From an uncultured Clostridia bacterium (GTDB lineage: Bacteria; Bacillota; Clostridia; Christensenellales; UBA1242), in NCBI GenBank assembly GCA_944349615.1, contig CALVNK010000002.1:1-51331 (forward strand): 51,331 bases of DNA. The letters are read 5' to 3'. The position numbers and the translations under genes are program-made. Under the pieces are notes generated by a model. It saw only the letters and a list, made by a program, of their open reading frames with translations. It did not search any database and was not told the origin of the DNA. Each line of letters begins with the position of its first letter. The stretch's first letter is position 1. Below are positions 8,564-49,320 of the stretch, piece after piece.

Positions 8564-9982
<1,419 letters not shown>

Positions 9983-13788: not shown

Positions 13789-13831
13789 TTTCCTCCTCCC
13801 GATATGAAAAAAAGTACATTTAAAAAACCTC

Positions 13832-13922
13832 TGGCGGAGACGGTGGGATTCGAACCCACGTATCAGTTGCCCGATAAACGCATTTCGAGTGCGTCCCGTT
13901 ACGACCACTTCGGTACATCTCC
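13832..13922 (-). tRNA. tRNA-Ser (anticodon CGA), long variable arm, encoded CCA
   Basis: Folded by hand: acceptor GGAGATG/CGTCTCC (one G-U), anticodon stem ACGCA/TGCGT with loop CTCGAAA, long variable arm, T arm GTGGG-TTCGAAT-CCCAC, discriminator G plus CCA. 91 nt. Confidence 0.9.
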
Positions 13923-14219
13923 ATAAAAAATTTATTAAATTGCTGTTTGATATATAAATAGAACCTTTTTTATTATACAATCAAATCTTAAAATAAACAA
14001 GATAATTTTGATATTTTTTATAAATATTTCATTTTTTATCGCATATAATTATAAGATTTATTTTTTAAATTCAAAAAAATAACAAATTTCAAAAAAAGGG
14101 TTGCTTTTTGCCGACTTTTTTATATAATTAAATTATATGTAATAAATATCAATATTTAAAATTTAACAAATTTTAATTATATTTTAATTTCTAACAATAA
14201 CTATAAAAGGATATTATCT

Positions 14220-16373: not shown

Positions 16374-16553
16374 AAAAACTCCTAATCAAATTATATGTTA
16401 CAAATTCTAAAAATGTCAAATTATAACAGCAATTTAAAGATAAACTATTAACTAAAAGAATTTATTTAATTAAAAAGATTAATTATAAAAATATGCTACA
16501 TAATATATTTGATAAATATATAATTATCTTTATATATTATTTGTTAAATTATT

Positions 16554-16581
16554 TTGAAATTTTGCTATGCTATGATAAAAT
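16554..16581 (+). promoter_or_regulatory. Sigma-70-type promoter candidate for the giant surface-protein gene
   Basis: TTGAAA, 16 nt spacer, TGaTAAAAT (extended -10), about 30 nt upstream of the RBS. Confidence 0.4.
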
Positions 16582-16612
16582 ATATTTGAAATATATTTTA
16601 AAGGGGTTAAAA

Positions 16613-19600
16613 ATGGTAAGAGTTAGAAAAATATTTTATTCTATTTTAATTTCATTAATTGCTTTTGGCTTTTTAAGCCTTGCATTCTTTACGCCAAAAA
16701 GCAATGACATCTTGTCATCAAATGCTGATGTCACTTATGATCAGATTACTAACAGTTATCCTGATTATCTTAAGATTAAAACCTCAGAGACTTCAGGTAC
16801 TGAAGTAGGTCAAGTTGGCAATGAAATCTTTTTGATGAGAGCAAACTCTTCTATCAGTCCAACTATTGGTACGGATATAATAGAGCAAGGATCGAGTAAT
16901 GCAAATTATGCATACTATCCAGATGAAGAAGGTAACCCTAAGCAATATTACTACTTCACTTTCCAAAACTCTCTTTCACTCTACTATAACCTTACAGCAT
17001 CGGATATTCAAAACGGACAGACTGGTACTAACCTTCTTACTCAGATTTCCAATGGCGCTGGTGGATATGAGGAAAATCGTATAACCTATTATACTTTTAC
17101 ACACGAAAATCCATTTGTACCACCAAATCTTAGCATAACCCCTCAAAGACTAGACATTGACTTTAAACTTAATACTCGCGAGTCAGCTATTACTAGATCT
17201 AATAATAATACGGTTACTCTTTACCAAGAAGGATGCTATACCCTTGCTATTGATGTAAATTATTTCTACACATCTAATGGCGGAGTAAGTTATACTAATA
17301 GCGCTCAAACAATATATTTTACTTTCTTAATTTTTAACACAGATACATATTTTAATGATGCCGGTATGCCACACCTTGCAATGTCATCTAATATGCAAGA
17401 ATCAACTGTAAGTAGCGACACCTATTCTAGATATTATTTTGCAAACTATAACTATGAAAAAAACACACAAAATGATACAACTACTATAACTAACTTCTCG
17501 TTTGATCCTGACAAATATCAAATAAACATTAATTATACCGACCTAAATTCAAATGTTAAAAGAGCCACAATCGTTTACACAAATGGCGAATTTGTTCAGT
17601 ATGATGAAAATAATGCTGTTATTTCAGAAGACGACTACTTTGTGTTTACTGATGTTGATATAAATGATGAAGACCAAAGCAAGACTGGATATATCTTCTT
17701 TACAGACCTTGGCAGTTACGATATCTCCATTCAATATCTATACAAGACTCAAGGACTAAACGGCGAACAAATATACGAACTACCTTTCACCGAACTTAGC
17801 GGAGATAGTGCGATTAACAGCAAACGCCAAAGAATTTATATTTATGGCTATCAAGCAGTTTTCTCAGATTATTCAAATCTCGACCCTGCTACAAACCAAC
17901 CTGCTTCGGTGGAACTTAAAACCTACAACTTTGAAAATGGTACATTCTCAGATAGCGCAGATATCACAGGTGAAGTAAATACATATATCGCTGAACATGG
18001 TAGCAGTACTTCAAAGATAGAAAGTACAGCGTCAAGCACGGCTTATGATGTTGATGATATAAAAGACTATGCACTTAATAGAATAAATCAAGCTGGCAGC
18101 ACACTTTCCCCTGTTTCTACAAATCAAACTCCTATTAAATTCTTGACAAACGCTACCAATTATGTAACAGACACGAATGCATCGAGCACAATTTTTAAAT
18201 TGTCTTATGATACAACTGATAGTCGTTGGGAGGTAGACAGTTCAAGCGATTTTGAAGGCTTCAATCAAAATTCTGCAGGCACATATCTATATGTAATTCA
18301 ATATACCTATGACTATTATATGTCAACAAGCGGTACACTGCAAGGTTCATACTACCACTATCAAATCTTCTTCTTTACTGTGACAAACACAATGCCTAGC
18401 GTTACAGTTGTTGATGACGAAAATTTTGAACAAATCTACACATCTGGATACACTAACAAGGGCGTATATATACTTGACGACTCTATGAATAACATCTATG
18501 ACGCTGAAGTTGAAATAACATTATCAGCACAAAACTATAATGCAGGCTCTAATGTTTACTTCTTCCAAGATGAGAATATTCTAGATCTTCAAAGTTATGG
18601 CATTTATTATGAAAAATTTAAAAATGTGAATGATGTCGTAAATGGCAAATATGGAATTTATATCCCCAAAAACGCATCTTTTGCAAATGCAGAGTTTACA
18701 ATAAAAATTTATTCTGCAAATACTGATAAGCCTAGCACAAGAACATTCACCATCGATACAAGTCCTATAAGTGAACTTCGGGCTACAAATGTTGAGTTTT
18801 CTTCTGGCAACAGTTATCGAATTCTCGACAATCTCTCTTCATACATCACAAATCAGTCGATAACTATGTCTTGGGCAGAAAAGGCAAGTGGAGCGACAAC
18901 CTATGGCTATGTTAAATACATTCCACTTAAAACAATCAACTATTACTCATCACAATCTTCAATAACTACTATTTCTTCACTCTTAGATTTCTGGCTTAAT
19001 TACAACAGTTCTAATCCAAGCGCTCAAGTTCAAGCTACCCTTCCTGTTTCCTACAAGCTAGATATTGAAGAGGGTGCAAGTCAGAGCTGGATTGAGTATC
19101 CAAACTCAAGATCATACTCATCATTCGTGACTTCTAGTTATGTAAAATCAGAAGCGGGAATATATATACTCGAAGTATATGATCAAGCAGGAAATTCTAG
19201 TTTTGAAATCTACATGATCGACAATAGCGAACCTGTATTTGTTCAAAGAACTGTATCATTAGACTTTACTCGCCTTGCTTTAATGGTCAACAACACTAGC
19301 ATTTCAATTCCAGAAGCAGACCCTATTACTGGACAGATTAGCACACAAATCACGATTGAATGGGCAAAACACAAAGCAATCTATCTTGACAATTTGACAA
19401 CGTCTAATCTTAAAAACTACGAGCCTTATGAATATACTATTGGACCTGCACAAGCACAACAAAATTTGACTGCAAAATTGCAAGAGTTCTTTAATTTCGA
19501 CAATCAAAAGATAATAAATGTAAACGATGTACCAGCGCAAGCTGTGACAGAAGAAATAGATGGTTCTCTAACTACAGGTATAGATGACTATGACGGATAT

Positions 19601-22600
19601 TATCTCGTAATTGATATAAATTCTACAGCCTATATTAAAAATTGGGATGCAGACACTTTTTCTCCTCAAAATGTCAGCACTTTAAGCGTACAATTTATAG
19701 ATGAAGAAGGCAAATCAATCGATGCTACATATAGAATTGCAATAAGAGATAGTGCAAATACAAAAACAACAGGCAACCCTACAGTCGACTATACAACCTA
19801 TCCATCTTCTTATATCTCTTTCAATGTATCAGCAGATGCATCAAAGGTGACCGTTAACTATATTGATAGTAATACGGGAAAGCCTAATACATTAAATGTC
19901 TCAAGCTTTGCTCATACTGGAAATCTTTATACAAAAACTAATGAAGATGATTCAATATCATATTCACATATTAAAGAAAATGAATATCAATTAGATGAAA
20001 ATTTATCCTACAAATTCTCATACCACTCACCTATCAATGCAAACAATGCTTTAAGAGTAAATTTCGTACCAGTTGCTGAAAATGGTTCTGAAGTTGACTC
20101 AATAACAATGTACTATTATGAATTTGTTAAAAAATCTGAGACTATAGATGGTAAAACTTATTGGTACTATACAATTTCAAATTCAAAAACACCTACTGAA
20201 ACTAGAGTTATATTCAAAGCAAGCGATGAAACAGTATATCAGCCAGGTCAAGAAGAGGATGCAGAAATCGCATTCGGCGATAATGATAGACCTTCTGCTG
20301 GTAGATATGTAATCGTTCGAGATTATAAAGCAAATTCAACGGTTGATAATTATGACTATTTTAGACGAACAATCACTTTCACTGTTGATACTAATGGAAT
20401 TATAACTAGACTTGAGGGAGTAAGCAACAAAGAAGGATCAGCTTCATCTCTTGAAAGTTTGGTCGGCGGTGATATCATTTTGAGTATGTATTCAAATGAT
20501 GGATATTCTTCTCTAGAGGTATCATTCCCTTCATATAACGAAGATGGACTTTCAAACGGATCCTTCTATACTCAAGGTTCATTCACCTCTGAAAAAGCAA
20601 ATGTTGCGGTTGCAGTCGAAGGAAATAAACTTCCGATGACACTCTATATTCCAAAATATAAATACACAACTACTACATATGAAAAAGAAACTGACACAAA
20701 TAGAAAATATTATGGAGTAGAAGAAAATCAAACCCTTTCTTACCACGGCAATTCACGCGTCGAAAAAGACGAGGCAGGCAGATGGAATGTTATAAGTGAA
20801 GGAGTTGTCATTCAAACTTTTGATTCGCAGGCGCAAGCAGAAAACTATTTAAACAGCAACATCTCAATCAAAGAATATGAAATCGTTGCCAACATCACGG
20901 CGGTGGCAACCGATGAAAATGGCGATGTGATAACCGATGAAAATGGCGATGCAGTGAAAAGATATTATGCTTCATCTTCTGATAATAGTAATGGATATCT
21001 TACTCTTTATGAAACAGATAGTTCATTCAACGTAAGTTCAAATAGCACACCTGTAAATTATTTCTACCTTGCAGGAATATATACAGTTGTTCTATATCAA
21101 GCACGAAACTTGGGTGAAACAGATGGCTTCTATCAGCTTTATAAATTTGCTTTCGAAATTTTAACTCAATCACCTGAATTTGATCTTATCACAAAGGATG
21201 GATATCAACTCTCACCTGCTGGCGACAGCACAGTATATTATACAAATACTGACGAGCTTCGCGTTCAATGGGAAGTGCCTACAAGCAATTATCAAGCAAG
21301 AATTGACACTAAAAATATAACAATCAACTCATCACCTTTAAGAACATATTCTGCAAATGTTGTTACTGAAGGCACTATCCAGTACTTTACGATTGACACC
21401 TCATATCTTCTTGCAAATGCAAATTCCTATGTTGACATAACGTTAAGATTTGAAGGTGACCAAAGTTACTATCGATCTACAACAAAACGAATTTACTTTG
21501 ATAGATCAGCACCACTTGAGAACATTCAATCTTTAATGAGTAAGACTGAAACTGCTACTGATCAAGCATTTACATTAAACTATCAACAAGTCTACATGAG
21601 AAGATATGCAAATCAGGATAATACCGAGCAGACAGTAGCATCTACTGACCAACTATCGACTATGAGTTATTCATACTCAATAGCAACAGGCGACTTTAGA
21701 TATTTCTCATACAATGTGGATATGTCATTCTTTAATTCAACACTCGCAAGCACTCTTATTAATGCAAGTACAAATCGTTACGGAACGCAATATATCTACT
21801 ATAAGACCATTCCTTCAATTGACTCGTACACGCAAGTAGATAAATCATCATTCTCTCAAAGTACTTATAAAGAGATTACCGTAAATGGAGCTAGTAACTT
21901 GTATTCAGGTTATTATGAAATCGTGGAAAGAGACTATGCGGGAAATATGACGGTATATGTTGTTTACCTAATACAAGGAGATGTTGAGACCGATCCAAAT
22001 GTAGACTCCAATGCAATCTCTTATATCAATAACAATAATACTGAAAACATTTCTATTGATTCAAGTGAAATTACAAACGGAATGAATATATATTCAAATT
22101 CTGGCTTTGAAATAACAAATTACAATTACATGTCTGATCCTTGGGCTATGATCTATGTTAGACAAAGCGGATCTTCACTTGTAAAATATATGAAATCTCC
22201 TTGGCTTGAAGAAAATCGTATTTGGAGAATAACTTTCTCTGGAAGTGGTGTATCACTTACTGAAACATCAATTAATGAAATCATGCAAAGCGTTCAGTCG
22301 TCATCTAACAAGCATCAACTCATGTTTGTAAATAGAGCAGATGGTGTATTTAATACCGTTTACCTTACCATAATGGATGCTTCTATATCTGCACAAAAGA
22401 TTGAAGATCCAAATCACACATCAGCAATACTTAATATAAATGTACCAACTCAAGCTCAATATGCTTCAACTGAAACAGCTTATGTATTCCCTACAAAGAT
22501 TACAATCTTGCAATTTACTACGACTGGTTCTAACCCTAACGATTGGAATACAATCTACATAGCAAATCAAGATCCTTATGGCACATGGACTGCTGATAAT

Positions 22601-25204
22601 CGTTATGAAAGTGCATCATCGTATATATCATTCACTACCCTTTCTTCTGGAACGATCTTGCAAATTAGAGTAAACCTTGGCGCAAACTCATCATCTAAAA
22701 TAAGATATGAGATTGTTGATAACTTTGGCAATAAGACAGTTATCATCCAACTTGCGAATGAAATATCATTCAACGAAATCGTTGGCACATCAACTGTCTA
22801 TACTTACACCGAGAGCAATGGCGATACTACATATCTTTCAGACCAAAGCATTATGTTTCAATATAACAATTTACTTTACAGTGTCAAAATTATGAATGGA
22901 GATGGAACAGATATCACTAACACTCTTCCACCGCCTCAAAGTCAAGGAAACAATATATATTCTTATACATTCTCACCTTCTACTTCGACCAACTGGGACA
23001 ATTATTTCAAGGTTGAAATTTCAGATATTGAGAGAGGAGAATGGATTAGAACAATCCATGTTAGGCTCTATTATAAACTTCCATACTTTGCGACAAGTTT
23101 AACTGAAGTTTCATCTGGCGGAATAGTATTCCAAGATAAAGACGGAAAGCCAATTACAAATTATGCTCAAACAACTAATGAAACAGTATATTTTGAAGGT
23201 AGACCATATACTACAACAGGATATTCAATCACAACCTACTCACAAGATGTAACTATGTTCTTTAGAGATGGTCAATCACTCAATTATATCGGACAATATA
23301 ATTATCGACTTGAATATAAATATAGTTTATATCTATCGCGTGATAATGGACAGACCTGGGAAAGCATAAACTCTTCATCATCTGCAACAAGTGGCGTAAG
23401 AATTTCAGGTACAGGGAATTATATCATCTTTGCTAAATATGATGATGAAAATATCTTTACTAACCTATCCAAAATCTATAGAGTTGAAATACTTGATACT
23501 GAATCTTCATTCTACTATATAACACTCGATGGTTTAAATGTCGAAAAGAGCGATATAAGATATGTGGATGCAAACGGAAAAGAGTATGGTTCAACCTATC
23601 TTGTTAGATTAAATCATAATGAAATTAATCATGACGATTTGATTGTCTATGAAGGTGAAGATGATGGTACAACTATTGTTTCAAGACTTCGTATCATTTT
23701 AAATCCCGAACTGAATGTAGATTGCGAATTGAAACCTTGCATTCCTGAAGAAAACGAAGCATTTGTTGATGTTTTCCACTACACTGCTGAAAATGATGAC
23801 GGACAAATCATCTCTCAGGGCGACTTTGCAATCATCTATATACGAGAAAGTAGCGACTTTGTAAGCCTACTCACCTATGAAACTCCCTATGGCACAACAG
23901 GCTCAATGAAATCAAGTTCATCTGTTACAGTTGTCGTAGATAATTCTGCTCAAAGCAGTCAAATGAGAATTAATTACTCATCTATAAACGGAATTGATGC
24001 AAATAGAATCAATATTGAAGTATTAAAATACTTTAATGGTGAATATGTAGAAATATATCCTACTGTTTATAGTAGTGGTGATACTTCTTACATATATCTT
24101 GAAAGAGCAGGCTCTTATAGAATAAAACTCTATGACTCATGTACCCCTGCCAATGTACAACTATTTAGAAATGGCGAATATTTGGATATTATTTTACTAA
24201 ACTCAATACCATTCACTGTATCGCATACAGAAACGACAACAGACGGCAGTGAAACAGTAGAAGAAACAGTTGTGACTGAGAAAATTCAAAATGCTATTTA
24301 TAATAATGCTGTAACAATTTCGCTTTACAACCTTTCAACTTATTATCAAGCAGGCGGATATCCTGTAATAAGCGTACAACGAAATGGATATGATTATACA
24401 AATTATACAAGCAGAAATTATACATATACATTCTCGGAACCAGGTTATTATTCGGTTAAATTCACCGCAACTTCAAGGACAACAAGTTCTGATGGAAGTC
24501 AAGAAACCTTACCTCAAATTAGAGAAGAAGTTTATAACTTTACCATTCTCAATCCAAACGAATCTAGATATGCATTCGAATATACCGAGTATCAAAACTA
24601 TTACATCTCAAGGATATTGAAAAATGGTATAGATATTACTGACGAACTTGCTGAAATTTCAAATTTCTCGACAGTTGTTATCGATGGCAGAACATATTTG
24701 ACAGAACTGAATGTAAACTACCTTGATAAAAAGACAGGAAGCGGTCGATATGAAATTACCGTTAATACCAACCAATCGCAATTTACTAACTTAATCGGCG
24801 AAGAATTCTCTTTCGCATTCTGGATTAATACCGCAACTCCTCCACTATCAATTTCGGTGGCTGAAGGCGAAAGCACAACTTCAAATATAACTATTTCCTT
24901 CAATACTCAAAATCTCTATGACGCAATGGGAGATTGTTACATACAGGTTGGCTCGCAAAGAGTTGAAATATCACAATCTACTCTGCCTACACTTTCAGTA
25001 GGCTATACAATCACAATTTCCGAAACAGGAACATATTATGTGCAAGTCTATTCAATGAGCGGATACTTGCTTTACTCATATAAAGTACAAAAAACCGCAC
25101 CATTAAACGCATTTGCTATAATTGCAATCGTACTCGGAGTCATCGCAGCAATAGTTATTGTGATAATTACAATCAGACTAAGAAAACGCCAAAAAGTTAA
25201 GTAA
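16613..25204 (+). CDS. Giant (2863 aa) membrane-anchored cell-surface protein, beta-rich, adhesin-like
   Basis: Start at ATG 16613 (MVRVRKIFYSILISLIAFGFLSLAFF, a signal/anchor) behind AAAGGGG. The C-terminus is a TM helix FAIIAIVLGVIAAIVIVIITI plus the stop-transfer RLRKRQKVK, with no LPxTG. Composition is rich in S/T/N/Y. Recurrent D-x-AGN/D-N-F-GN strand motifs (YDQAGNSSFEIYMIDNSEP, RDYAGNMTVYVVYL, VDNFGNKTVIIQL) are typical of Ig-like/HYR-type surface domains. Confidence 0.8.
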   Translation: MVRVRKIFYSILISLIAFGFLSLAFFTPKSNDILSSNADVTYDQITNSYPDYLKIKTSETSGTEVGQVGNEIFLMRANSSISPTIGTDIIEQGSSNANYAYYPDEEGNPKQYYYFTFQNSLSLYYNLTASDIQNGQTGTNLLTQISNGAGGYEENRITYYTFTHENPFVPPNLSITPQRLDIDFKLNTRESAITRSNNNTVTLYQEGCYTLAIDVNYFYTSNGGVSYTNSAQTIYFTFLIFNTDTYFNDAGMPHLAMSSNMQESTVSSDTYSRYYFANYNYEKNTQNDTTTITNFSFDPDKYQININYTDLNSNVKRATIVYTNGEFVQYDENNAVISEDDYFVFTDVDINDEDQSKTGYIFFTDLGSYDISIQYLYKTQGLNGEQIYELPFTELSGDSAINSKRQRIYIYGYQAVFSDYSNLDPATNQPASVELKTYNFENGTFSDSADITGEVNTYIAEHGSSTSKIESTASSTAYDVDDIKDYALNRINQAGSTLSPVSTNQTPIKFLTNATNYVTDTNASSTIFKLSYDTTDSRWEVDSSSDFEGFNQNSAGTYLYVIQYTYDYYMSTSGTLQGSYYHYQIFFFTVTNTMPSVTVVDDENFEQIYTSGYTNKGVYILDDSMNNIYDAEVEITLSAQNYNAGSNVYFFQDENILDLQSYGIYYEKFKNVNDVVNGKYGIYIPKNASFANAEFTIKIYSANTDKPSTRTFTIDTSPISELRATNVEFSSGNSYRILDNLSSYITNQSITMSWAEKASGATTYGYVKYIPLKTINYYSSQSSITTISSLLDFWLNYNSSNPSAQVQATLPVSYKLDIEEGASQSWIEYPNSRSYSSFVTSSYVKSEAGIYILEVYDQAGNSSFEIYMIDNSEPVFVQRTVSLDFTRLALMVNNTSISIPEADPITGQISTQITIEWAKHKAIYLDNLTTSNLKNYEPYEYTIGPAQAQQNLTAKLQEFFNFDNQKIINVNDVPAQAVTEEIDGSLTTGIDDYDGYYLVIDINSTAYIKNWDADTFSPQNVSTLSVQFIDEEGKSIDATYRIAIRDSANTKTTGNPTVDYTTYPSSYISFNVSADASKVTVNYIDSNTGKPNTLNVSSFAHTGNLYTKTNEDDSISYSHIKENEYQLDENLSYKFSYHSPINANNALRVNFVPVAENGSEVDSITMYYYEFVKKSETIDGKTYWYYTISNSKTPTETRVIFKASDETVYQPGQEEDAEIAFGDNDRPSAGRYVIVRDYKANSTVDNYDYFRRTITFTVDTNGIITRLEGVSNKEGSASSLESLVGGDIILSMYSNDGYSSLEVSFPSYNEDGLSNGSFYTQGSFTSEKANVAVAVEGNKLPMTLYIPKYKYTTTTYEKETDTNRKYYGVEENQTLSYHGNSRVEKDEAGRWNVISEGVVIQTFDSQAQAENYLNSNISIKEYEIVANITAVATDENGDVITDENGDAVKRYYASSSDNSNGYLTLYETDSSFNVSSNSTPVNYFYLAGIYTVVLYQARNLGETDGFYQLYKFAFEILTQSPEFDLITKDGYQLSPAGDSTVYYTNTDELRVQWEVPTSNYQARIDTKNITINSSPLRTYSANVVTEGTIQYFTIDTSYLLANANSYVDITLRFEGDQSYYRSTTKRIYFDRSAPLENIQSLMSKTETATDQAFTLNYQQVYMRRYANQDNTEQTVASTDQLSTMSYSYSIATGDFRYFSYNVDMSFFNSTLASTLINASTNRYGTQYIYYKTIPSIDSYTQVDKSSFSQSTYKEITVNGASNLYSGYYEIVERDYAGNMTVYVVYLIQGDVETDPNVDSNAISYINNNNTENISIDSSEITNGMNIYSNSGFEITNYNYMSDPWAMIYVRQSGSSLVKYMKSPWLEENRIWRITFSGSGVSLTETSINEIMQSVQSSSNKHQLMFVNRADGVFNTVYLTIMDASISAQKIEDPNHTSAILNINVPTQAQYASTETAYVFPTKITILQFTTTGSNPNDWNTIYIANQDPYGTWTADNRYESASSYISFTTLSSGTILQIRVNLGANSSSKIRYEIVDNFGNKTVIIQLANEISFNEIVGTSTVYTYTESNGDTTYLSDQSIMFQYNNLLYSVKIMNGDGTDITNTLPPPQSQGNNIYSYTFSPSTSTNWDNYFKVEISDIERGEWIRTIHVRLYYKLPYFATSLTEVSSGGIVFQDKDGKPITNYAQTTNETVYFEGRPYTTTGYSITTYSQDVTMFFRDGQSLNYIGQYNYRLEYKYSLYLSRDNGQTWESINSSSSATSGVRISGTGNYIIFAKYDDENIFTNLSKIYRVEILDTESSFYYITLDGLNVEKSDIRYVDANGKEYGSTYLVRLNHNEINHDDLIVYEGEDDGTTIVSRLRIILNPELNVDCELKPCIPEENEAFVDVFHYTAENDDGQIISQGDFAIIYIRESSDFVSLLTYETPYGTTGSMKSSSSVTVVVDNSAQSSQMRINYSSINGIDANRINIEVLKYFNGEYVEIYPTVYSSGDTSYIYLERAGSYRIKLYDSCTPANVQLFRNGEYLDIILLNSIPFTVSHTETTTDGSETVEETVVTEKIQNAIYNNAVTISLYNLSTYYQAGGYPVISVQRNGYDYTNYTSRNYTYTFSEPGYYSVKFTATSRTTSSDGSQETLPQIREEVYNFTILNPNESRYAFEYTEYQNYYISRILKNGIDITDELAEISNFSTVVIDGRTYLTELNVNYLDKKTGSGRYEITVNTNQSQFTNLIGEEFSFAFWINTATPPLSISVAEGESTTSNITISFNTQNLYDAMGDCYIQVGSQRVEISQSTLPTLSVGYTITISETGTYYVQVYSMSGYLLYSYKVQKTAPLNAFAIIAIVLGVIAAIVIVIITIRLRKRQKVK

Positions 25205-33457: not shown

Positions 33458-33486
33458 TTGACGAGCATTGATAAAAATGATATAAT
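33458..33486 (+). promoter_or_regulatory. Near-consensus sigma-70 promoter for the 707-aa gene
   Basis: TTGACG, 17 nt spacer, TGaTATAAT (extended -10). Divergent from the secA promoter. Confidence 0.55.
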
Positions 33487-33500
33487 AAAAAAAGAAGAGG

Positions 33501-35624
33501 ATGAAAATGAGTTTTTTAACAAAATTAAACAGCAATCGCAAAGAATTGCAAAAAAGATTGAAGACGAAAATTGCATTTTTGAAAAATCAAAAAACTTATA
33601 AATCCATAGATTTTTCTGTTTCCAATGGCAATTTCGACAATGCCACAGAGCTTGAGAGTCAATTGTTTGACAAATACTTTGCTGATGCAACAATTCAAGA
33701 TATACTCAATTTTGTAAGTAATGAAAATCTTTACAGACATTTTACATCTATTGCTGATGAGAAAGAATTGAAAAAAATGCTTTTGGTAATTAACAATAGT
33801 TTGCAAAAGAATGGGCAAAAAAGAGCTAAAATGTCACCAAAATATTTTTTTGATGAAACAAATAAAAAAATCCCTAAGAATTTTGCTTTGATAACTACCA
33901 CATTTGAAAAACACAATCTTTCTCGCCTTCAATTTGTTGCAGAAAGGGCTCAAGTTTTTGCAAGGGTTGTTTCCTTTTTAAAAACAAATTATGGAAAGAT
34001 TTATAAAAAAATTGATGATGGCAATAAAGCAAATAGCAGAGAGACCTTTCAAAATCTAGAAAACACCTTGAAAACATATGCTCAAATTTATGCAGGGTCT
34101 TCTATAGAGAGTTTTATAACAGATTTCACTAAATATAAAGATGTTTATAATATAAAAGAAAAAAGCACCTCGACTGAATTCATTATAGCACAGGCAAATT
34201 TTGATCCAAATAAACTAAAGAATATGCTTCTAGCAAATAAAAATCGCGAGCTAGAAAAACTTGATAAAATAGCAGACATTGCTCGTCAGGCAAACAAAAT
34301 AGCATCACAAAAACTTGAAACCAAGACTGAGATGAAAACATCACAAAATTTATTAGATGAAAATATGCAAATACTAAAAAATATACATCTCATTAACGAG
34401 AATTTAAAGAAAAATTATGATGAAATAAATGTAAGATGTATAAACAGCAAAAATGATTGGTTTGAGGCGAACAATAATGAAATATCTGCTAGACTTAAAA
34501 ATATAGCTCAAAATTTTGAACATGTTAGGGTCAACGTTGTATTGAACAACATAAACCATCTAGACACTACACTTTCGGATAATACAGCGTCAGCATCACA
34601 ACTAGAAATATATTCAAGCGCAATAGAAATTGCAAACAATATTCCACAAGATATCTATGGTTATATAGAAAAAGCCCAAGATAAAAATTCAAGTTTAAGG
34701 GTTTATACTTTTAAAAATGAAGATGAAAAGGAAGAAAAAGTAATATTTTCAAGTGAACAATTGAATGTTTTGAAATCACTTCGACAGGCAATAAACTATA
34801 AAAATAATAAAAATAATTATTTAAATAAATTTATTGCTGAAAATATTACCTCTATTGAGGGATTACAAAAATTTGTGGACCTTCTGAAATCTAATTGTAT
34901 GTTCGAAGAACTCCCAGTTGAATCGGTGAATATTTTGAGATTGATTTTGCGTGAGGCATATAAAGGAAATCCTCCTGATTTATGTAAATGTCTTGATTTT
35001 GGCAAAATAGATTACTCGATTTTTGTCAATCATGATGAAAAAATCAATGAAATATTAAAAAATAATGATGAAATTACAAAATCAATGCAATATTTATCTA
35101 ATAAATCTGCTTTAAAAAAAATAATAATGGCAAAAAAACATAATGAAAGACAAATAAACAAAATACCGCATGAAAATATCTTATTAACTAATAGAATACA
35201 CATAAAATCAACAGAGGTAAACCTCAACAATCAAAATCTAAAAAATTTAATTGAAAAACTACAAAATATAAAATCGGAAATAACAACTTGCATTGAAAAA
35301 AATGATATTGTGGAAAACAAAGAACGGGAATTTGAACAAAAAAATCTTATTAGTGATAAAGTATTGCAATTAACTAAATCAATAATAGAAATAATTAACG
35401 ATAATAAGGATAATCTTGTATATATAGATACAATCGAACGACATTTGCTGTCTACCAGCATCGATACTTTAATTGAATTGCTGAACAATGAAATGGACGA
35501 AGTTTATGCAAATCAAATAGCATTATCCTTAAATTCAGAACAAGTGAATATGCTTAAAACCACACTACTTAATTATGTCCAATCAACAAAAATAATTGAA
35601 GAGGAACTTAAGGAGAGAGAATAG
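33501..35624 (+). CDS. Hypothetical 707-aa soluble, predominantly helical N/K/E/I-rich protein
   Basis: RBS GAAGAGGA. No TM segment, no signal peptide, no motif I recognise. Long heptad-like stretches. Confidence 0.7.
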   Translation: MKMSFLTKLNSNRKELQKRLKTKIAFLKNQKTYKSIDFSVSNGNFDNATELESQLFDKYFADATIQDILNFVSNENLYRHFTSIADEKELKKMLLVINNSLQKNGQKRAKMSPKYFFDETNKKIPKNFALITTTFEKHNLSRLQFVAERAQVFARVVSFLKTNYGKIYKKIDDGNKANSRETFQNLENTLKTYAQIYAGSSIESFITDFTKYKDVYNIKEKSTSTEFIIAQANFDPNKLKNMLLANKNRELEKLDKIADIARQANKIASQKLETKTEMKTSQNLLDENMQILKNIHLINENLKKNYDEINVRCINSKNDWFEANNNEISARLKNIAQNFEHVRVNVVLNNINHLDTTLSDNTASASQLEIYSSAIEIANNIPQDIYGYIEKAQDKNSSLRVYTFKNEDEKEEKVIFSSEQLNVLKSLRQAINYKNNKNNYLNKFIAENITSIEGLQKFVDLLKSNCMFEELPVESVNILRLILREAYKGNPPDLCKCLDFGKIDYSIFVNHDEKINEILKNNDEITKSMQYLSNKSALKKIIMAKKHNERQINKIPHENILLTNRIHIKSTEVNLNNQNLKNLIEKLQNIKSEITTCIEKNDIVENKEREFEQKNLISDKVLQLTKSIIEIINDNKDNLVYIDTIERHLLSTSIDTLIELLNNEMDEVYANQIALSLNSEQVNMLKTTLLNYVQSTKIIEEELKERE

Positions 35625-35687: not shown

Positions 35688-35716
35688 TTGACAAATAATA
35701 ATGTAAGTGTTAATAT
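35688..35716 (+). promoter_or_regulatory. Near-consensus sigma-70 promoter for the 1808-aa gene
   Basis: TTGACA, 17 nt spacer, TGtTAATAT, 35 nt before the ATG at 35751. Confidence 0.55.
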
Positions 35717-35750
35717 ATAATAAATAGATTATAATTTGAGGAGAAAAAAA

Positions 35751-38700
35751 ATGCCAAGAAAATATGGTCTTACAGGTAAGTATCCTGTAACAGTATCAAA
35801 CAAAATCAGCACTAGATTTGGAGATGAGGAGGTCAAATTTGTACAAAACGTGCAAATGAATCTTGATAGTCAAAATCTTTTCGAGCTCAACGAAGCAAAT
35901 AATGACGGCTCAAAGAGTAATGCAACCTCGCCTACCCTTACTATTAATGTTGATAAAGATAATGTCTATTCCGTTTCTTTTAGCGAGGCAGTCGCATCTC
36001 AATTCGAAAAACAGTTCAAAGAACTTGGAATTGATGACGATCACCTTAAGGCAATAATAGATGATAGAAAACTTCAAATAGATAGCAACGATAGTGCTAT
36101 TTCTGTTGAATCAAAAAATAATGAATTTATAGTGACCGTTAAATCTAAAGACGGAAAAGAATATACACTTGTGGCAAATTCAACAGGTGTTAAATTGGAC
36201 TATGGAGAGCATAAATTCGCCTATTCTCTTGGGAAAGATAAGCATCTTGATGTAAATATGCATAGAGATTTTGCAACAAGTATGCTAAAACAAGAAAAGC
36301 CTTTTGCAGAAATTACCGCAAAAGAAAAACAAGATCGCGTTCGTTCAATCCCCCATTATATAATTTATGAATACTGCCAAGGCTTTAAAAATAAAGATGT
36401 GAATATGCAAAGTCCAACAACAATTGGAGATTTTACATTTTATCGCGCACAATTAGACCCAGATAAACAAGGATCAAGTATTACTGATTATGTGTTTATC
36501 AAAGATGAAAAGACAAAACAAGTTTTTCTATATGGAAATGGCGGACTAAATGAGTGTAAAAATTATTTTTTCACACAAGATAAAAATGGAAAACTATCTT
36601 TGGATATTAACTTCAGACAAGGTGGAAAAACAACTGAAATTGACTGCCAAAATCCCAAATTTAAAGAATTTTTCCATAATTTTACACAAATTAATTTACC
36701 ACAAGCAGGTGCTAGTGATAAAGCAGGAAATGTGTTCGAAAAAATTTCAACTCTAGATATTGATGGACAAAAATATGATGTATATCATAATAATCCGACA
36801 GCAACTCTTAATACACGATTTTCTTATACTCAAAAAAAATATGAGCAAGAAAGTATAGTCGCAGATGAAGATGAAATAAACATTGGTCCTACTGGACCTA
36901 CTGGACCAACCGGACCTACTGGACCTACTGGACCAACCGGTCCTACTGGGCCTACTGGGCCAACCGGTCCTACTGGGCCTACTGGGCCTACGGGACCTAC
37001 GGGACCTACGGGACCTACCGAACCTACTGGACCTACCGGACCTACTGATCCTACTGGACCTATTGGACCTACCGGGTCTACTGATCCTATTATTCATACC
37101 GATCCTACTGAGCCTACTGATCCTATTATTCATACCGATCCTACTGAGCCTACTGATCCTACTGGTCCAACCGGTCCTACTGGTGCTGAAGAAATTAACA
37201 ATACCGAAAAGCAAGATCAATCAACCGAAAATAAACCACATTATAAAAAAGTAACAAAAGTTAAGCCTGGAAGAACGGTCGGCAAAGAAACAAGCTATAA
37301 ATATCAAGCCGAAGCGATTGGTATGTCAATGGGAATGATTGGACTATTTTTAGGTATTCTTGCTCCATTCCTTGGTCCTGTTGTGCTTTTTGTTGGTCTT
37401 GGGCTAACTTTAGGTGGTGTTGGGCTTGGCGTACTTGCCGATAAGCTGGAATTTAAACCATATAATATAGCAGAAAAAACCATCACTAAATATGAAAAAT
37501 TAGAAGAAGAAGAGAAAGATTTAGAGAAAGAGATGGAAAAGTCTGCATCTAAATTTATTGATGGCGAAGAGAAACTTGATTCTCTTGAAATAGAAAATCA
37601 AGGATTGGCACAAGATGTAATGCAATTTGCAGATAATGCTGGCGATAGATATCATCCACTACCTGATTTTATTGAACAAGTAAACACCTTTGCTCCTATT
37701 TCTCATCCAAAAGATGAAAATGGTAATGTTATTGTTTCTAACATAGATTATCTTGACAAAGAAAATCTACAATATAGACAAGCTCTGATCGCGGAACTAA
37801 AAAGAATTAACCTGATGCCAGAAGATGAAGCTATAAGAACAAGAGGCTTGGGAAAGAATAAAGAAACTCTTCCAACAAATAAAGAATTAAAACAACAGGC
37901 AATAGAAAGTTTTAAACAACAATTCTATATAACCGATATGAGTCAAGATGACCGAAAAAAAGTTTCCGACACAATTGAGGGACTTTTTGCTAAACCTCAA
38001 CTGCTAGCTGAATTTGTAGATACAGCAGAGAAATATAATAGTGCTCAGGAATCAGAAAACACACTTTTACAATCTCAAAGAAAAGAAATTGCTGGCATGG
38101 ACAATAAAATGCTTGATAAAATCTACAATAATAGTCGATCAAATGCTCAACGACGAGCAAAACTTGACGAAAGACATGCAACTGCCATCATAAGATCACG
38201 AGCAATTAACAACAAGTTAAATACCCAGGAAAATCAAGAATTACTAAATTTAGTACCCGAAGAAGAAAGAGAAATTCATGCTCAATATTTTGCTAATGCA
38301 TCACAGCAACTTGAGAATGAGGTAAATGAAATAAAAGAAATTGCAAAAGACAATGTAGAAAGAATTGCAATTGTTGAAATGCTACCTAAGTATATTGAGA
38401 GTATTCAAGAAGATAACTCAAATTATGCAACCAAACTGCAAGCACAAGAGGCAACTTTAGATTATCTCTATACTTACACTCAAAATTACTATGCTGACGA
38501 TGAAATTACAAGTTTTTTCAAAGATTTGAGACAAACTAATTATGTCACTCCTTCTAAAACGGTTTTGGGTCCTAAGACCTATGATGCATTCGATAAAATT
38601 CGCGAAAGTGGAAATTTAATTTTAGATGACTTGTTAAATGTTGAAGAAACTTCTAAAATTAAAAATCAAATCTTTAATTTTATTGATGATAAGTATGCAG

Positions 38701-41177
38701 ACAAAATTCTAGAAATTTATCAATATGACATTTCATCAACATTGCTTCCATCAGCTTATGATAAAAGCGATAAAAATAAAGAACATTCTTTAGAAAATAT
38801 TGCGTTAAATCTTGCAAAGGCAGACATTGTATCTATGCTTACAAACATAGCATCGCAGACTAACGACAAGATTAAAGTTGATGATAAAGAATATTCTATT
38901 GATGATATTGTCAAAATGGATATAAAGTCAATTAAATCAACTTTTAATATTTATTCAAAAATTATAGATGGAAAAGATGTAATTGTTGTAAATGATCAAG
39001 AATATAGCAACAATGTGACTGATGTTAAAAATGCTCTTGACTTTTTAGCACTGAATAACCAGTTTGAACAGGCTTATATTTCAAAAGTTGATAAGATCCC
39101 TTTTGACACCATAATTGATCAATTAAAACAACTTAATACTTATCCAAGTACAACTGATATAGATTATTTCAATAAAATGATATTAGATGCACCTTTTTTA
39201 ACAAGTCTTAACGATGATTTAAAAGTTAAATTGATAAATATTAGTTATGGACTAGATACTTTAAAAGCAAAATATGACTATCTTATAAAAAATAGAGATG
39301 AATTAAAAAATGATAATGAATTAATGCCTCAAATTCAACAAACTATAAATAATGCAAGAAAAATTATAAGATCTGTAATATATGAGTACTCACATGATTT
39401 AGTTGAACAAACTTCCACCATAAAATCACTAAAAGATCGCGGAAGACATAAAAATAAAATTGATATGATGGCTTCAAGACATAAAATGTATTCTACTATA
39501 GAAAAATATGAGCATGTTGATGAAGTTTTTGGTTTCTTTGTAGATAAAAATATTAATATTGATAAATTTAGAGACCAATATAATTCTCTACTAGATGAGT
39601 ATACAAAAGATGGTAAAACTGTTAGCGCAGGAGAAATAGTAAAACAAACATTGTCTACCTTGATCGGAGACACAAACTCAATAAACGGCCAAACATTTGA
39701 CGAGATTGTAGATACTTTAAAAGATGAAAATGGAATAGTGGACTTTGACAAACTTTCAAATTTTGCACAAAGCGTATTTGATGCAATTGATATGCAATCA
39801 CAATATAAACTTAAATCTCGAGTTCAAAATCATGACGAAAATTTTGTGAATGATGAATATAGGACGCAAAGAAAAGCATTTTTTGATCCTAAGCAACCTT
39901 CTGCTGAAAATATGATGCAAGTTATTATTGAATCAGGTCTTGCTGATATGGACGACATAGTAAGCGCCTTTACAAATCCAGATCTAGAGAAAGGTTTGAA
40001 AGATTTATTGAAAAAATGTGGTTTAAGTAGTGATCAAGTCGATTCGGTCATCAACGCTAAATTTCTTAACACCAAAACACCTTACAAAATGTTCAATTCA
40101 GCACAGCGTAGGTATATAAATTTGAAAAACAGCCTTGCAAAACTAAGAGAACTTGAAGAAAAATATAATGATGCAATAAATGAGCTTACTACTACTGGTA
40201 ATCTTGAAGCATTTAAAAAACTTGACGTTAAAGAATGTGCAAAATATGGCATCAAAATTGATAGGATTTTAAGTGCCATTGAAAAACATAAAAAAGATGG
40301 AACTGAAATCAAACTAGATGATGCTAAAATTGCAAAAGATATTGAAAATAATTTGACATCATTTAGATTAGAGAAAAATGCACTTGCGTTCAATATTGAA
40401 AATCAAAACAAAATTCTCAATTCAACAACTGAAAGAGATGCTCGCTTTGAGCAAGCTAAACTTGATCTTGATGTTTATGAACAGCATGCTGAAGCTTACT
40501 CAGGCAGACTTGAACAAATTACAAAAGTATTCCAAAATCTTGCAGTAACACCTAGTATGGCAAAGCAGTTTATGGAAGCAGTTGCAATCGGAAATATACA
40601 AGAATTTGCCACAAACAACTCTCACATACAAGGTATAGCAGATTTAGAAAACATGACTCAAGCAGAAATTGATAGATATCAATCTTTAGGACTAAGTTTC
40701 AAAGAATTGGAAAAGATTGCAAAATCTTTAAAAGAAGATAAAAATGCTAAAATTTCTGAAAAGAAGATGAAAAAGGCTTTACAAGATCTTGCTCAATTCA
40801 ATCAAGCCCAACAGGAAAATATAAACAAACAAAAACAGATAAAAGAACAAAAGATTAAAAAACAAAGCAAAAAAATCAAAGAACAAGAAAAAGAAGATAA
40901 TACAGATAAACTCGAACGTAAAGATAAGAACAGTTTCCTTGCAAAACTTTTCAACTTTAAAAATGCTACAAAAGAAAAACTTAAAGATGAAAAGGAAAAA
41001 ACGCAAAAACGCGAAGAAGAAAGAGCTAAAGAAGAAAGAGAACGCGAAGAAGCCGATAAACGAGCAAAAGAAACTGAAGAAAAGAGAGAAAAAGGCGAAG
41101 AAGGAGAAGAAGCTTCTCATGACGCTAAGCCTGAAGAGGAAGAAACACGTGAAAGCAATCCAGAAGATGCCATTTAA
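35751..41177 (+). CDS. Giant (1808 aa) chimeric protein: globular N-domain, collagen-like (GPT)n tract, Gly-rich TM hairpin, ~1240-aa helical region, K/E-rich tail
   Basis: Start at ATG 35751 (MPRKYGLTG) behind GAGGAG. 15 consecutive GPT codon triplets run from 36885 and then degenerate into E/D/S-P-T units. Hydrophobic [42 protein letters not shown] at 37311-37443. The C-terminal tail is [41 protein letters not shown]. Confidence 0.8.
36885..37184 (+). repeat. 9-bp tandem repeat (GGN CCT ACN)n with decayed 3' units and an internal 42-bp duplication
   Basis: Direct reading: ggtcctactggacctactggaccaacc... The unit gatcctattattcataccgatcctactgagcctact occurs twice in tandem ([12 protein letters not shown] x2). 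Confidence 0.9.
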
Positions 41178-41207
41178 AGATATGCGCAACTAGAAGATTT
41201 TTCGAAA

Positions 41208-41245
41208 ACGAGAGTAGTGATAAAAACTACTCTTGTTTTTTTATT
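41208..41245 (+). terminator. Rho-independent terminator
   Basis: ACGAGAGTAGT-GATAAAA-ACTACTCTTGT (11-bp stem) followed by TTTTTTT. Confidence 0.8.
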
Positions 41246-47256: not shown

Positions 47257-47283
47257 CAAAAAAAAGACCAACAAAGTTGGCCT
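47257..47283 (-). terminator. Rho-independent terminator closing the tRNA-fMet/repeat locus
   Basis: On the minus strand: AGGCCAAC-TTT-GTTGGTCT followed by T8. Confidence 0.65.
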
Positions 47284-47351
47284 CAAACGGAATAACAACA
47301 AAATCAACACCATATTTAAAAGTTGCAAAATTGTTATATCCGTTTTTTTAA

Positions 47352-47776
47352 TGGTTGCGGGAGTTGGATTTGAACCAACGACCGAATACGAGATTATATC
47401 TTCGCTCTGCTTCGATATATCCCTTCGGTCGCATTAAACAATAATCTTCTACTTGTTATTTTTTGAACCAACGACCGAATACGAGATTATATCTTCGCTC
47501 TGCTTCGATATATCCCTTCGGTCGTTACTAAAAAAGGTTAAGATATTATCCTAACCTATAACTTGGCTCTAGGGAGTTGGATTTGAACCAACGACCGAAT
47601 ACGAGATTATATCTTCGCTCTGCTTCGATATATCCCTTCGGTCACATTAAACAATAATCTTTCACTTAGTTATTTTGACCTAACGACCGAATACGAGATT
47701 ATATCTCCGCTTCGCTTCGATATATCCCTTCGGTCGTTACTAAAAAAGGCTAGGATATTATCCTAACCTATAAACT
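47352..47776 (-). repeat. Tandem 212-bp array (2 units) of tRNA-fMet 3'-fragments fused to a conserved 51-nt hairpin, each unit ending in a terminator
   Basis: 47352-47383 is identical to the 3' 32 nt of the tRNA (47777-47808). Hairpin copies GACCGAA..TTCGGTC lie at 47380-47430, 47473-47523, 47593-47643 and 47685-47735. Terminator hairpins lie at 47530-47557 and 47742-47769. Period is 212-213 bp. Confidence 0.9.
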
Positions 47777-47853
47777 TGGTTGCGGGAGTTGGATTTGAAC
47801 CAACGACCTTCGGGTTATGAGCCCGACGAGCTTCCGGACTGCTCTATCCCGCG
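47777..47853 (-). tRNA. Initiator tRNA-fMet (anticodon CAT), encoded CCA
   Basis: CGCGGGATAGAGCAGTCCGGAAGCTCGTCGGGCTCATAACCCGAAGGTCGTTGGTTCAAATCCAACTCCCGCAACCA. Shows the C1-A72 mismatch, A11:U24, and three G-C pairs closing the anticodon stem, all initiator hallmarks. Confidence 0.95.
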
Positions 47854-47888
47854 ACATACTTTAGCAAGTTTTCTTTGCTTGCTATAAT

Positions 47889-48738: not shown

Positions 48739-49320
48739 ATGACAGCTTATCAAGATATTATTATAAATAAAATTAAAGATGTTCTTTTGTATATAAGTGC
48801 TTTTGTTCCTATGCAGGCACTTATCCTCATTAAACTTATCATAGAACTTTTGTGTGGCAATATTCCATTAAATGTCCTATCAATCATCTATCTTGTTACG
48901 CTTATTCTTTTAATAACAATAGGCGGTCTTGGCTTGCTTTTAAACACCACCCTTTCAAATGATCAAAGTGGAGTTGTGATAATCCTGCAATGTGAAAACA
49001 TAACTGACAAACATTTTTTAGGATATTTTTCACTCTTTGTACTCTTTGCTTTACAACTTAATCTTACACTTGTCAGCAGTTTTATAACATATCTTTTAAT
49101 CTTAATCTTTATTGGCTTTGTCTATGTCAAAAATTCTCTATTTTATATCAATCCATTTCTTAATATTTTAGGCTATAGTTTCTATGATATCGTGTATACC
49201 GATGAAAAAGGCGAAAATAAAAGTGAAGCCAAGTTCTTCTATAAGGGCGAGCTTCAAACTAAGCAGAAATATAGAGTAATTATAAGAAATCGACATTTTT
49301 CTTTCTTAAGTTTGCATTAA
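48739..49320 (+). CDS. Membrane protein (193 aa, ~4 TM plus C-terminal soluble part), function unknown
   Basis: Hydrophobic segments. No convincing RBS, so the start is uncertain. Confidence 0.5.
   Translation: MTAYQDIIINKIKDVLLYISAFVPMQALILIKLIIELLCGNIPLNVLSIIYLVTLILLITIGGLGLLLNTTLSNDQSGVVIILQCENITDKHFLGYFSLFVLFALQLNLTLVSSFITYLLILIFIGFVYVKNSLFYINPFLNILGYSFYDIVYTDEKGENKSEAKFFYKGELQTKQKYRVIIRNRHFSFLSLH

Follow-up and report, generated by a model that had tools for sequence, protein, structure and literature searches.

A clade-restricted family of giant proteins with a predicted central hydrophobic hairpin, encoded at the secA/ychF site of uncultured gut Clostridia

What does a bacterium do with a protein that joins a globular head, a run of Gly-Pro-Thr triplets, a hydrophobic hairpin and an arm of about 1240 residues in a single chain? 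The question is raised by a gene at positions 35751-41177 of a 51,331-nucleotide (nt) stretch of contig CALVNK010000002.1, from an uncultured Clostridia bacterium; we refer to the whole of this stretch as the window. The gene encodes a protein of 1808 amino acids (aa), for which an earlier reading of the letters (the original prediction) had proposed a collagen-like stalk and a role either in the cytoplasm or on a spore-like surface. From its sequence, the protein belongs to a clade-restricted and hitherto undescribed family of giants, and all the relatives that we could detect come from a single clade of uncultured gut Clostridia. We favour, at a probability of roughly 0.45, a role as a membrane scaffold or tether that faces the cytoplasm and is produced during growth.

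Family, chromosomal site and expression signals

We identified relatives of the giant protein by two routes. A word-indexed search, for which we masked the collagen tract, recovered only seven, all of them metagenomic, and an exhaustive search of 1.84 billion representatives with a profile of the N-terminal domain (N-domain) returned 35 matches, about 32 of which look genuine. Full-length giants of 1444-2249 aa, with the N-domain at or near the N-terminus, made up 21 of the 35; the other genuine-looking matches were short, and are probably fragments from contig ends (e.g. P0041). Three matches (P0022, P0036 and P0037) were set aside as spurious, being tandem-repeat proteins with multiple alignments to query positions ~105-189 only. 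The family amounts to about 32 clusters at 50% identity, mostly of 1444-2249 aa. The sole name given to a member in any source was "hypothetical protein [Clostridia bacterium]", and the species-representative genomes that carry a family gene were metagenome-assembled genomes of uncultured Clostridia, Clostridiales or Firmicutes.

The order of parts was conserved across the family, running from a beta-rich N-domain through a low-complexity spacer and a hydrophobic hairpin, with Pro/Gly at its central turn, to an all-helical arm that ends in a charged tail, and the N-domain and arm always occurred together. The original prediction had left it to be seen whether this domain order is conserved, and in which clades; we found it conserved, in uncultured gut Clostridia only. 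It had also held the order to be new, and this was borne out, with no described family matched in Pfam, NCBIfam, PHROGs, PADLOC, or in PDB sequence and fold searches. Pfam and NCBIfam searches of the 1808-aa protein gave sub-threshold collagen matches only, and Pfam searches of 23 family members identified no shared domain. PHROGs held no match to the giant protein, PADLOC gave no defence-protein match for the N-domain, the arm or a 707-aa protein encoded upstream, and PDB sequence searches with the arm and with profiles of the N-domain, the core of the arm and the full-length protein found no match. A scan of the 2.9 million viral contigs of IMG/VR with the N-domain found no relatives, and a search of the literature on giant proteins, transmembrane hairpins and Firmicutes turned up nothing of apparent relevance. 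Two members carry an extra N-terminal extension before the family N-domain (P0028, aa 1-~120; P0019, aa 1-~240), and the extension of P0028 is a BspA-type leucine-rich repeat domain (LRR_5, E 4.5e-19), without a signal peptide.

The giant gene was found directly upstream of ychF in all 11 lineages examined. The genes mrnC, rlmB and a sigH-like gene follow ychF wherever the contig is long enough, and upstream, on every contig long enough to include a complete gene there, the divergently transcribed neighbour is secA. The order secA(-) / X / ychF / mrnC / rlmB / sigH, with the giant gene as X, or the part of it covered by the contig, was recovered in L001, L002, L004-L008, L010, L011 and L013, and synteny was kept even in members with only ~20% identity to the window protein. 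The neighbours of the giant gene are secA, ychF, and ribosomal protein and RNA-modification genes. Some 30 clusters of proteins of 1400-2250 aa, held at a fixed secA/ychF site behind a strong conserved promoter, represent a large investment by small, low-GC gut bacteria.

The protein is encoded by a single unbroken open reading frame (ORF), from an ATG at 35751 to a stop codon ending at 41177, and the promoter, ribosome-binding site, terminator, (GPT)15 tract from 36885, helical arm and charged tail were all located where the original prediction had placed them (Table 1). The mechanically called ORF begins at a TTG merely five codons upstream of this ATG, and therefore no signal peptide is concealed in the 1808-aa protein. 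The N-terminus itself is non-hydrophobic (Kyte-Doolittle 12-residue mean ≤0.09 within the first 60 aa), in agreement with the predicted lack of a secretion signal.

We identified an extended -10 promoter, of the form TTGAC(A/T)-17-TGn-TAxxxT and located 30-44 nt before the start codon, at 10/10 orthologous loci, including those of the most divergent members, and a GGAG-type ribosome-binding site at the equivalent position in most of them. Because this promoter is near consensus and conserved in position, it points to sigma-A-dependent expression in growing cells, and it argues against mother-cell, sporulation-specific expression.

Predicted hairpin anchor, helical arm and probable membrane topology

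Residues 522-563 form the only hydrophobic stretch in the 1808-aa protein, with 42 residues and no charges. The original prediction had placed two back-to-back hydrophobic helices at 37311-37443, and the charge-free stretch (Table 1) bears this out, being modelled by AlphaFold2 (AF2) as a helix-turn-helix. It consists of two predicted helices of ~20 residues and a PFLGP turn, the second helix being rich in GxxxG motifs; the AF2 model, built from a 21-sequence alignment, places the helices at aa 517-541 and 543-563 with a one-residue turn. A single charge-free stretch of 37-49 aa (mean 43) was present in 25/25 members examined, with a central Pro/Gly in nearly all of them (IPGVG, LGPI, PFLGP), and the hairpin has the lowest nonsynonymous divergence (dN) within the giant gene in the comparison with L001. 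In the full-length members examined, hydrophobic sequence was limited to one such stretch, of about 40-48 aa. No signal peptide or N-terminal hydrophobic segment was identified in the ~25 members examined.

The hydropathy of the 25 members and the AF2 model are best read as a two-helix hairpin that would place both large parts of the protein on the same side of the membrane, as originally proposed. The topology is likely to be N-in/C-in, given that there is no signal peptide, that ~400-750 aa precede the hairpin, that no charged residue falls in the turn, and that the flanks, when averaged, are mildly basic (mean charges of the 15-residue flanks in 25 members, +3.7/-2.9 on the N side and +4.1/-2.3 on the C side).

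The first ~378 aa, which had been described as beta-looking, were modelled by AF2 from an alignment of four sequences only. The model is beta-rich, confident for aa 14-175 (predicted local distance difference test, pLDDT, in the 80s) and poor for aa 180-377, and a Foldseek comparison of it with the PDB, in which the second half of the model was of this poor quality, gave nothing significant (best E 0.019, template-modelling (TM) score ~0.1). A Walker A motif was not found anywhere in the 1808-aa protein.

Beyond the hairpin extends an arm of ~1240 aa, enriched in K, D, L, I, E and N and ending in a tail of 27% E and 22% K. Among 24 members, conservation along the arm is highest in the membrane-proximal core, and the AF2 model of the core (aa 505-925, 21-sequence alignment) is all-alpha, with helices of up to 59 residues, a pLDDT of 79.4 and a predicted TM score of 0.61. 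Foldseek found nothing significant for this model in the PDB (best E 0.76) or BFVD (best E 0.049), and spectrin repeats in the PDB aligned to it, over the modelled aa 505-925 only, at E 4.3 and a TM score of 0.12. When the family is aligned, occupancy and identity both reach their minimum in the middle arm. In the distal arm we identified conserved motifs, one of 19 residues and another of the form AVAxGNIQEF...SLGLS, and self-BLAST found no internal repeats in the arm. The C-terminal module comprises a K-rich basic run, a 10-residue hydrophobic motif at 40929-40958 and a K/E-rich, then acidic, tail; the succession of basic run, hydrophobic motif and acidic end closes most family members. We considered the SFLAKLFNF motif of this module as an amphipathic membrane-targeting helix, and rejected this since its hydrophobic moment is unremarkable.

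Tryptophan is absent from the 1808-aa protein and from its closer orthologues (P0003, P0006, L005). Distant family members contain 0-8 tryptophans, mostly 1-8, and the residue is present in other proteins of the window, for example 18 times in a protein of 2903 aa.

If the giant protein is a scaffold or tether on the cytoplasmic membrane face, the central hairpin would fix it in the cytoplasmic membrane with both large parts in the cytoplasm, and the low-complexity spacer, flexible or extended, would hold the beta-rich N-domain at a variable distance from the membrane. The arm would form a chain of alpha-helical bundles that lies along the inner face of the membrane or reaches out from it, offering a large interaction surface, and the basic-hydrophobic-acidic module at the C-terminus could contact the membrane or a partner. 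Among the functions put forward in the original prediction, a cytoplasmic membrane-tethering element fits best, and we found no evidence for an organiser of a surface fibre layer. A scaffold of this kind would be a lineage-specific addition to bacterial cell organisation, in a group that is yet uncultured.

A membrane-anchored helical scaffold with a tethered head is a known theme, and the protein family itself is undescribed. By analogy, the giant protein would work most like a tethered head of the ZipA/FtsK type combined with a helical membrane scaffold of the EzrA type, and it is a member of neither group. ZipA and the FtsK linker have a membrane anchor, a flexible Pro/Gln-rich tether and a globular domain. 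They resemble the giant protein, as proposed here, in holding a globular domain on a long tether of biased composition and variable length at the inner membrane face, and differ from it in orientation, which is inverted (the head of the giant protein is N-terminal), and in sharing no sequence or domain match.

EzrA, a division regulator of Bacillota (structure in PMC4243239), is likewise membrane-anchored, with a large all-helical cytoplasmic part of helical bundles, and is made in growing cells, offering a plausible analogy for the arm. EzrA has one N-terminal transmembrane helix and ~560 aa, in contrast to the central hairpin, spacer-borne beta-domain and 1240-aa arm of the giant protein, and the EzrA Pfam model matched none of the 23 members at E ≤ 0.05. 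The Inc proteins of Chlamydiae have a bilobed hydrophobic domain of ~40-60 residues that forms a hairpin (PMC3048545). They share with the giant protein a hydrophobic hairpin (42 aa here), termini that would lie on the same side, long helical or coiled-coil soluble parts, fast evolution and the lack of a Sec signal. However, Incs are type III secretion substrates, inserted in a host-derived vacuole, whereas the giant protein is about ten times larger than typical Incs and is encoded on the chromosome of gut Clostridia beside secA; the window contains no type III secretion system genes. With secA, mrnC, rlmB and a sigH-like gene, the setting is that of a Bacillota-type chromosome, and the giant protein does not belong with the Incs.

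A membrane remodeller of the dynamin, mitofusin or atlastin kind was rejected, there being no Walker A motif in the 1808-aa protein and no dynamin or GBP Pfam match in the 23 members. The terminal organelle of Mycoplasma contains cytoskeletal proteins with acidic proline-rich domains, HMW1, HMW3 and P65. These are, like the giant protein as proposed here, large cytoplasmic membrane-associated structural proteins with acidic Pro-rich low-complexity and helical regions; they differ in belonging to the Mollicutes and in having no hairpin anchor, and Pfam scans identified no homology.

Spacer replacement, divergence and rival explanations

The original prediction had listed a collagen-like stalk among the parts of the protein. 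We identified 15 perfect GPT triplets at aa 379-423 (36885-37019), followed by degenerate xPT units (E/D/S-P-T), a duplicated 12-residue unit and an acidic/basic run-in. The GPT codons vary synonymously, and therefore the tract is not a collapsed perfect repeat. Repeat number differed between strains, as the original prediction had thought worth comparing: the L019 protein, from another sample, is identical to that of the window, and the L014 and L018 proteins are 100% identical to it save for nine extra GPT triplets (24 vs 15), a copy number that comes from short-read assemblies and is hence uncertain. In L016, which has an identical YchF and flanking DNA that is ~98% identical, the tract is replaced by an acidic, D/N/S/T-rich linker without collagen-like sequence.

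A collagen-like tract is missing from most orthologues. Where the window protein has (GPT)n, L005 and P0003 have a (GPTGPDQT)n octad, which breaks the Gly-X-Y register, L006 has (EPKPES)n, P0006 has a G/S/D-rich spacer, and P0007, L007 and L008 have helical plus acidic sequence. The Pfam Collagen model (PF01391) scored 23.6 bits on the 1808-aa protein against a gathering score of 27.2, and the NCBIfam models stayed far under their cut-offs, at 45.9 against 325 for SclB, 30.5 against 500 for Lcl and 18.8 against 400 for SclA. Because the spacer differs between lineages, the tract is missing in L016 and the collagen scores are sub-threshold, the likeliest reading of the GPT tract is as a non-globular leash that varies in length and for which several compositions are acceptable, this being one, and the stalk does not stand as a defining part. 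The composition of the spacer would be free to change provided that it remained Pro/Gly/acidic-rich or otherwise non-globular, (GPT)n being the form found in the present strain. This locus provides a clean natural case of a collagen-like repeat as one interchangeable solution for a spacer, and a caution against taking every Gly-X-Y tract for a surface stalk.

The giant protein shares a run of Gly-Pro-Thr triplets with BclA, and differs from BclA, Scl1/Scl2 and Lcl in lacking a signal peptide, an LPXTG motif, a BclA_C domain and a head that trimerises, and in a tract that is unconserved and most likely cytoplasmic. We found no LPXTG motif in the 1808-aa protein, no match to BclA_C or related models in Pfam, and no BclA-type targeting motif in an inspection by eye. 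By sequence, with neither an export signal nor a trimerising domain and with no conservation of the tract, the giant protein is not a BclA/Scl collagen-like protein. [quoted passage not shown] An origin of the GPT DNA by copying from the BclA-like gene described below was rejected, with only 81-92% identity over short stretches, as expected from shared codons.

The window also encodes, at 8576-9982 (+), a 468-aa protein with a genuine Pfam Collagen match (E 3.6e-27) and GATGPTGPT-type repeats. Its C-terminal BclA_C match is sub-threshold (28.8 vs 38 bits), and it has no signal peptide. This gene explains a 43% GC peak at 8-10 kb, and its exact protein sequence is absent from the protein collection, probably through repeat variation.

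We additionally compared the divergence of the giant gene with that of its neighbours. SecA was 79-98% identical across the compared loci, with a ratio of nonsynonymous to synonymous divergence (dN/dS) of 0.02-0.03, and YchF 83-100% identical (dN/dS 0-0.03), compared with 21-58% identity for the giant protein (91% to the conspecific L016) and a dN/dS of 0.26-0.32. The dN/dS of neighbouring genes was ≤0.06, except for one mrnC comparison at 0.12, and the dS of the giant gene was also higher than that of its neighbours. Selection on the giant gene is purifying but relaxed, which, with the architecture common to dozens of homologues, marks it as a real gene, and it evolves about ten times more freely than the genes around it; for the middle arm, dN/dS reached 0.47 against L001.

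Compared with L016, the divergence was concentrated in two islands. The first (36183-37382) covers the C-terminal half of the N-domain plus the spacer, at 49-89% nucleotide identity, and the second (38283-39482) covers the middle arm, at 72-89%; the rest of the giant gene is ~93-100% identical, on a background of ~98%. Inside the islands dN/dS is ~0.25 and dS ~0.47. The islands look like diverged alleles imported by recombination, rather than the product of positive selection in place, and suggest that the modules within them meet a variable partner or are weakly constrained. Near-identical flanks around internal recombinant islands make the gene a useful strain marker, and mark a candidate interface in conflict or partner-matching; a conserved architecture and cassette-like hypervariability are combined in one gene. 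A bolder and rather doubtful version of the scaffold reading would have the protein form a new inner-membrane skeleton or tether of one uncultured gut Clostridia lineage, with the head and middle arm swapped between strains as recombination cassettes, perhaps to suit a variable partner such as phage proteins, and with a leash that can be a cytoplasmic collagen-like segment.

Several points weigh against a scaffold at the cytoplasmic membrane face. The topology rests on the positive-inside rule, the length of the hairpin and an AF2 model with a pLDDT of 60-76 in the hairpin; the flanks show a weak charge bias, and several members have an N-side flank with no net charge or a negative one. The conserved hydrophobic motif at the C-terminus did not come out as amphipathic when scored. 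Neither a partner nor an enzymatic motif nor a homologue indicates a function, and we infer the role of scaffold or tether by argument from architecture. Fast divergence, recombinant islands and a variable repeat number are more typical of surface-exposed proteins than of housekeeping scaffolds in the cytoplasm, and one member bears a BspA-type leucine-rich repeat extension at its N-terminus, a domain common in surface proteins.

These last points are what a surface-exposed head would lead one to expect. In such a protein the N-domain and the Pro-rich spacer would lie outside the cell, the spacer crossing the wall in the manner of Gram-positive surface proteins or TonB, and the protein would be under diversifying selection as an adhesin, a receptor or a target for phage. 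The (GPT)n and (EPKPES)n spacers resemble wall- or periplasm-spanning regions, and the polymorphic repeat number, the very fast divergence relative to flanking genes, the recombinant islands over N-domain and spacer, and the LRR_5 extension of one member are all in keeping with it. We nevertheless consider it unlikely, as a part of ~400-750 aa would need to be exported without a signal peptide in ~25 members, and as an N-terminus outside the cell implies, with two spans, an outside C-terminus and the export of a highly charged arm of 1000-1600 aa. The turn without positive charge and the flanks that are on average basic are the opposite of what an out/out topology predicts, and the second divergence island lies in the arm, beyond the hairpin in sequence.

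Less probable again is a morphogenetic protein of the spore or exosporium. The mother cell would make such a protein, which would be anchored to the forespore's outer membrane, or to a layer resembling an exosporium, and present a BclA-like collagen filament there, an assembly route that the original prediction had offered. It would account for the BclA-type GPT triplets, the absence of a signal peptide, the sigH-like gene nearby and the presence in the same genome of the protein at 8576-9982, with its genuine Collagen and sub-threshold BclA_C matches. This route is disfavoured by a promoter of sigma-A type, and not of sigma-E/sigma-K type, in 10/10 loci and by synteny with housekeeping genes. 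The collagen tract is moreover missing in most orthologues and in the conspecific strain, the Pfam Collagen score is sub-threshold with neither BclA_C nor a targeting motif, and unglycosylated (GPT)10 forms no triple helix (PMC11923368).

That the protein is what remains of a mobile element, such as the tape-measure or minor-tail proteins of phages, which are long and helical with internal hydrophobic segments, is suggested by a similar general composition and by the best BFVD matches in Foldseek, which were to minor-tail and tape-measure proteins, though at E 0.05-2 and TM scores of ~0.1. It is effectively refuted by the absence of a PHROG match and of an IMG/VR relative among 2.9 million viral contigs, by housekeeping neighbours with no phage genes nearby, and by a chromosomal position that is fixed across the clade.

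The least probable explanation, an assembly artefact fusing two genes across the repeat (36885-37184), as the original prediction had cautioned, finds some encouragement in metagenomic contigs that begin just past the repeat (P0001, P0004 and P0005) and in the absence of the exact 1808-aa sequence from the protein collection, and is effectively refuted by full-length, unbroken ORFs spanning the spacer in L014, L016, L018 and L019, from several samples, and in every orthologous lineage, whatever the type of spacer, by synonymous heterogeneity within the repeat, and by an N-domain and arm that always occur together. The probabilities that we attach to these readings sum to less than one, and the remainder stands for functions that we did not imagine.

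Layout of the gene and other features of the window

Table 1. Coordinates, in window numbering, of the giant gene, its expression signals and the parts of its product.
Feature	Position	Strand	Basis
Promoter, sigma-A-type, TTGACA-17 nt-TG-n-TAATAT (extended -10)	35688..35716	+	Sequence inspection and orthologous loci
Ribosome-binding site GAGGAG, 7 nt before ATG	35738..35743	+	Sequence
Coding sequence with its stop codon, 1808-aa protein	35751..41177	+	dN/dS and shared architecture in homologues
N-terminal globular domain, aa 1-378, beta-rich (predicted), family-specific	35751..36884	+	Profile search, AF2
Low-complexity spacer, aa 379-505	36885..37265	+	Sequence, strain and orthologue comparison
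Charge-free hydrophobic hairpin, aa 522-563	37314..37439	+	Hydropathy, 25 members, AF2
Membrane-proximal helical core, conserved, aa 566-925	37446..38525	+	Family alignment, AF2
Variable middle arm, aa 926-1300	38526..39650	+	Family alignment, divergence island
Distal helical arm, aa 1301-1700	39651..40850	+	Conserved motifs
C-terminal module, aa 1701-1808: basic, hydrophobic, K/E-rich, acidic	40851..41174	+	Recurs in most members
Intrinsic terminator, 15-pair stem then T-run	41204..41240	+	Sequence

Between secA and the giant gene we identified a gene for a soluble helical protein of 707 aa (33501-35624, +), with a promoter of its own (TTGACG-17-TATAAT, 33458-33486). It is confined to the closest relatives (the window, L001/L005, L014 and L016) and absent from L002, L004, L006-L008 and L011. 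With a dN/dS of 0.21-0.25 it is under selection as relaxed as the giant gene's, and in the comparison with L001 its dS is likewise high, at 1.54. The single match to the protein was a weak ESAT-6-like one, far under the cut-off, and the possibility that it is a paralogue of the giant arm was rejected, no similarity being found.

A second giant protein, of 2903 aa, is encoded at 16493-25204 (+). A hydrophobic signal or anchor lies at its N-terminus and a transmembrane segment (aa 2865-2899) at its C-terminus. The protein is rich in S, T, N and Y with no Pfam match, and fits a surface protein. Counterparts of similar size and relative position were found in L002 (2882 aa) and L011 (2801 aa).

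In comparison with L016, the stretch 47283-47882, beside tRNA-Met (47777-47853), contains an indel with 44-58% gap columns, and may be a small integration or deletion hotspot. Further along, a 193-aa protein (48739-49320, +) has homologues in L002, L016 and L017 that carry the precomputed Pfam label PF28043:KwaA, a component of the Kiwa defence system; the window copy gave no Pfam match at E ≤ 0.001, at odds with this label. Finally, tRNA-Ser(cga) at 13832-13922 (-) overlaps the 5' end of the listed 351-aa methyltransferase ORF at 12925-13980 (-), and the real start of the methyltransferase must therefore be further downstream.

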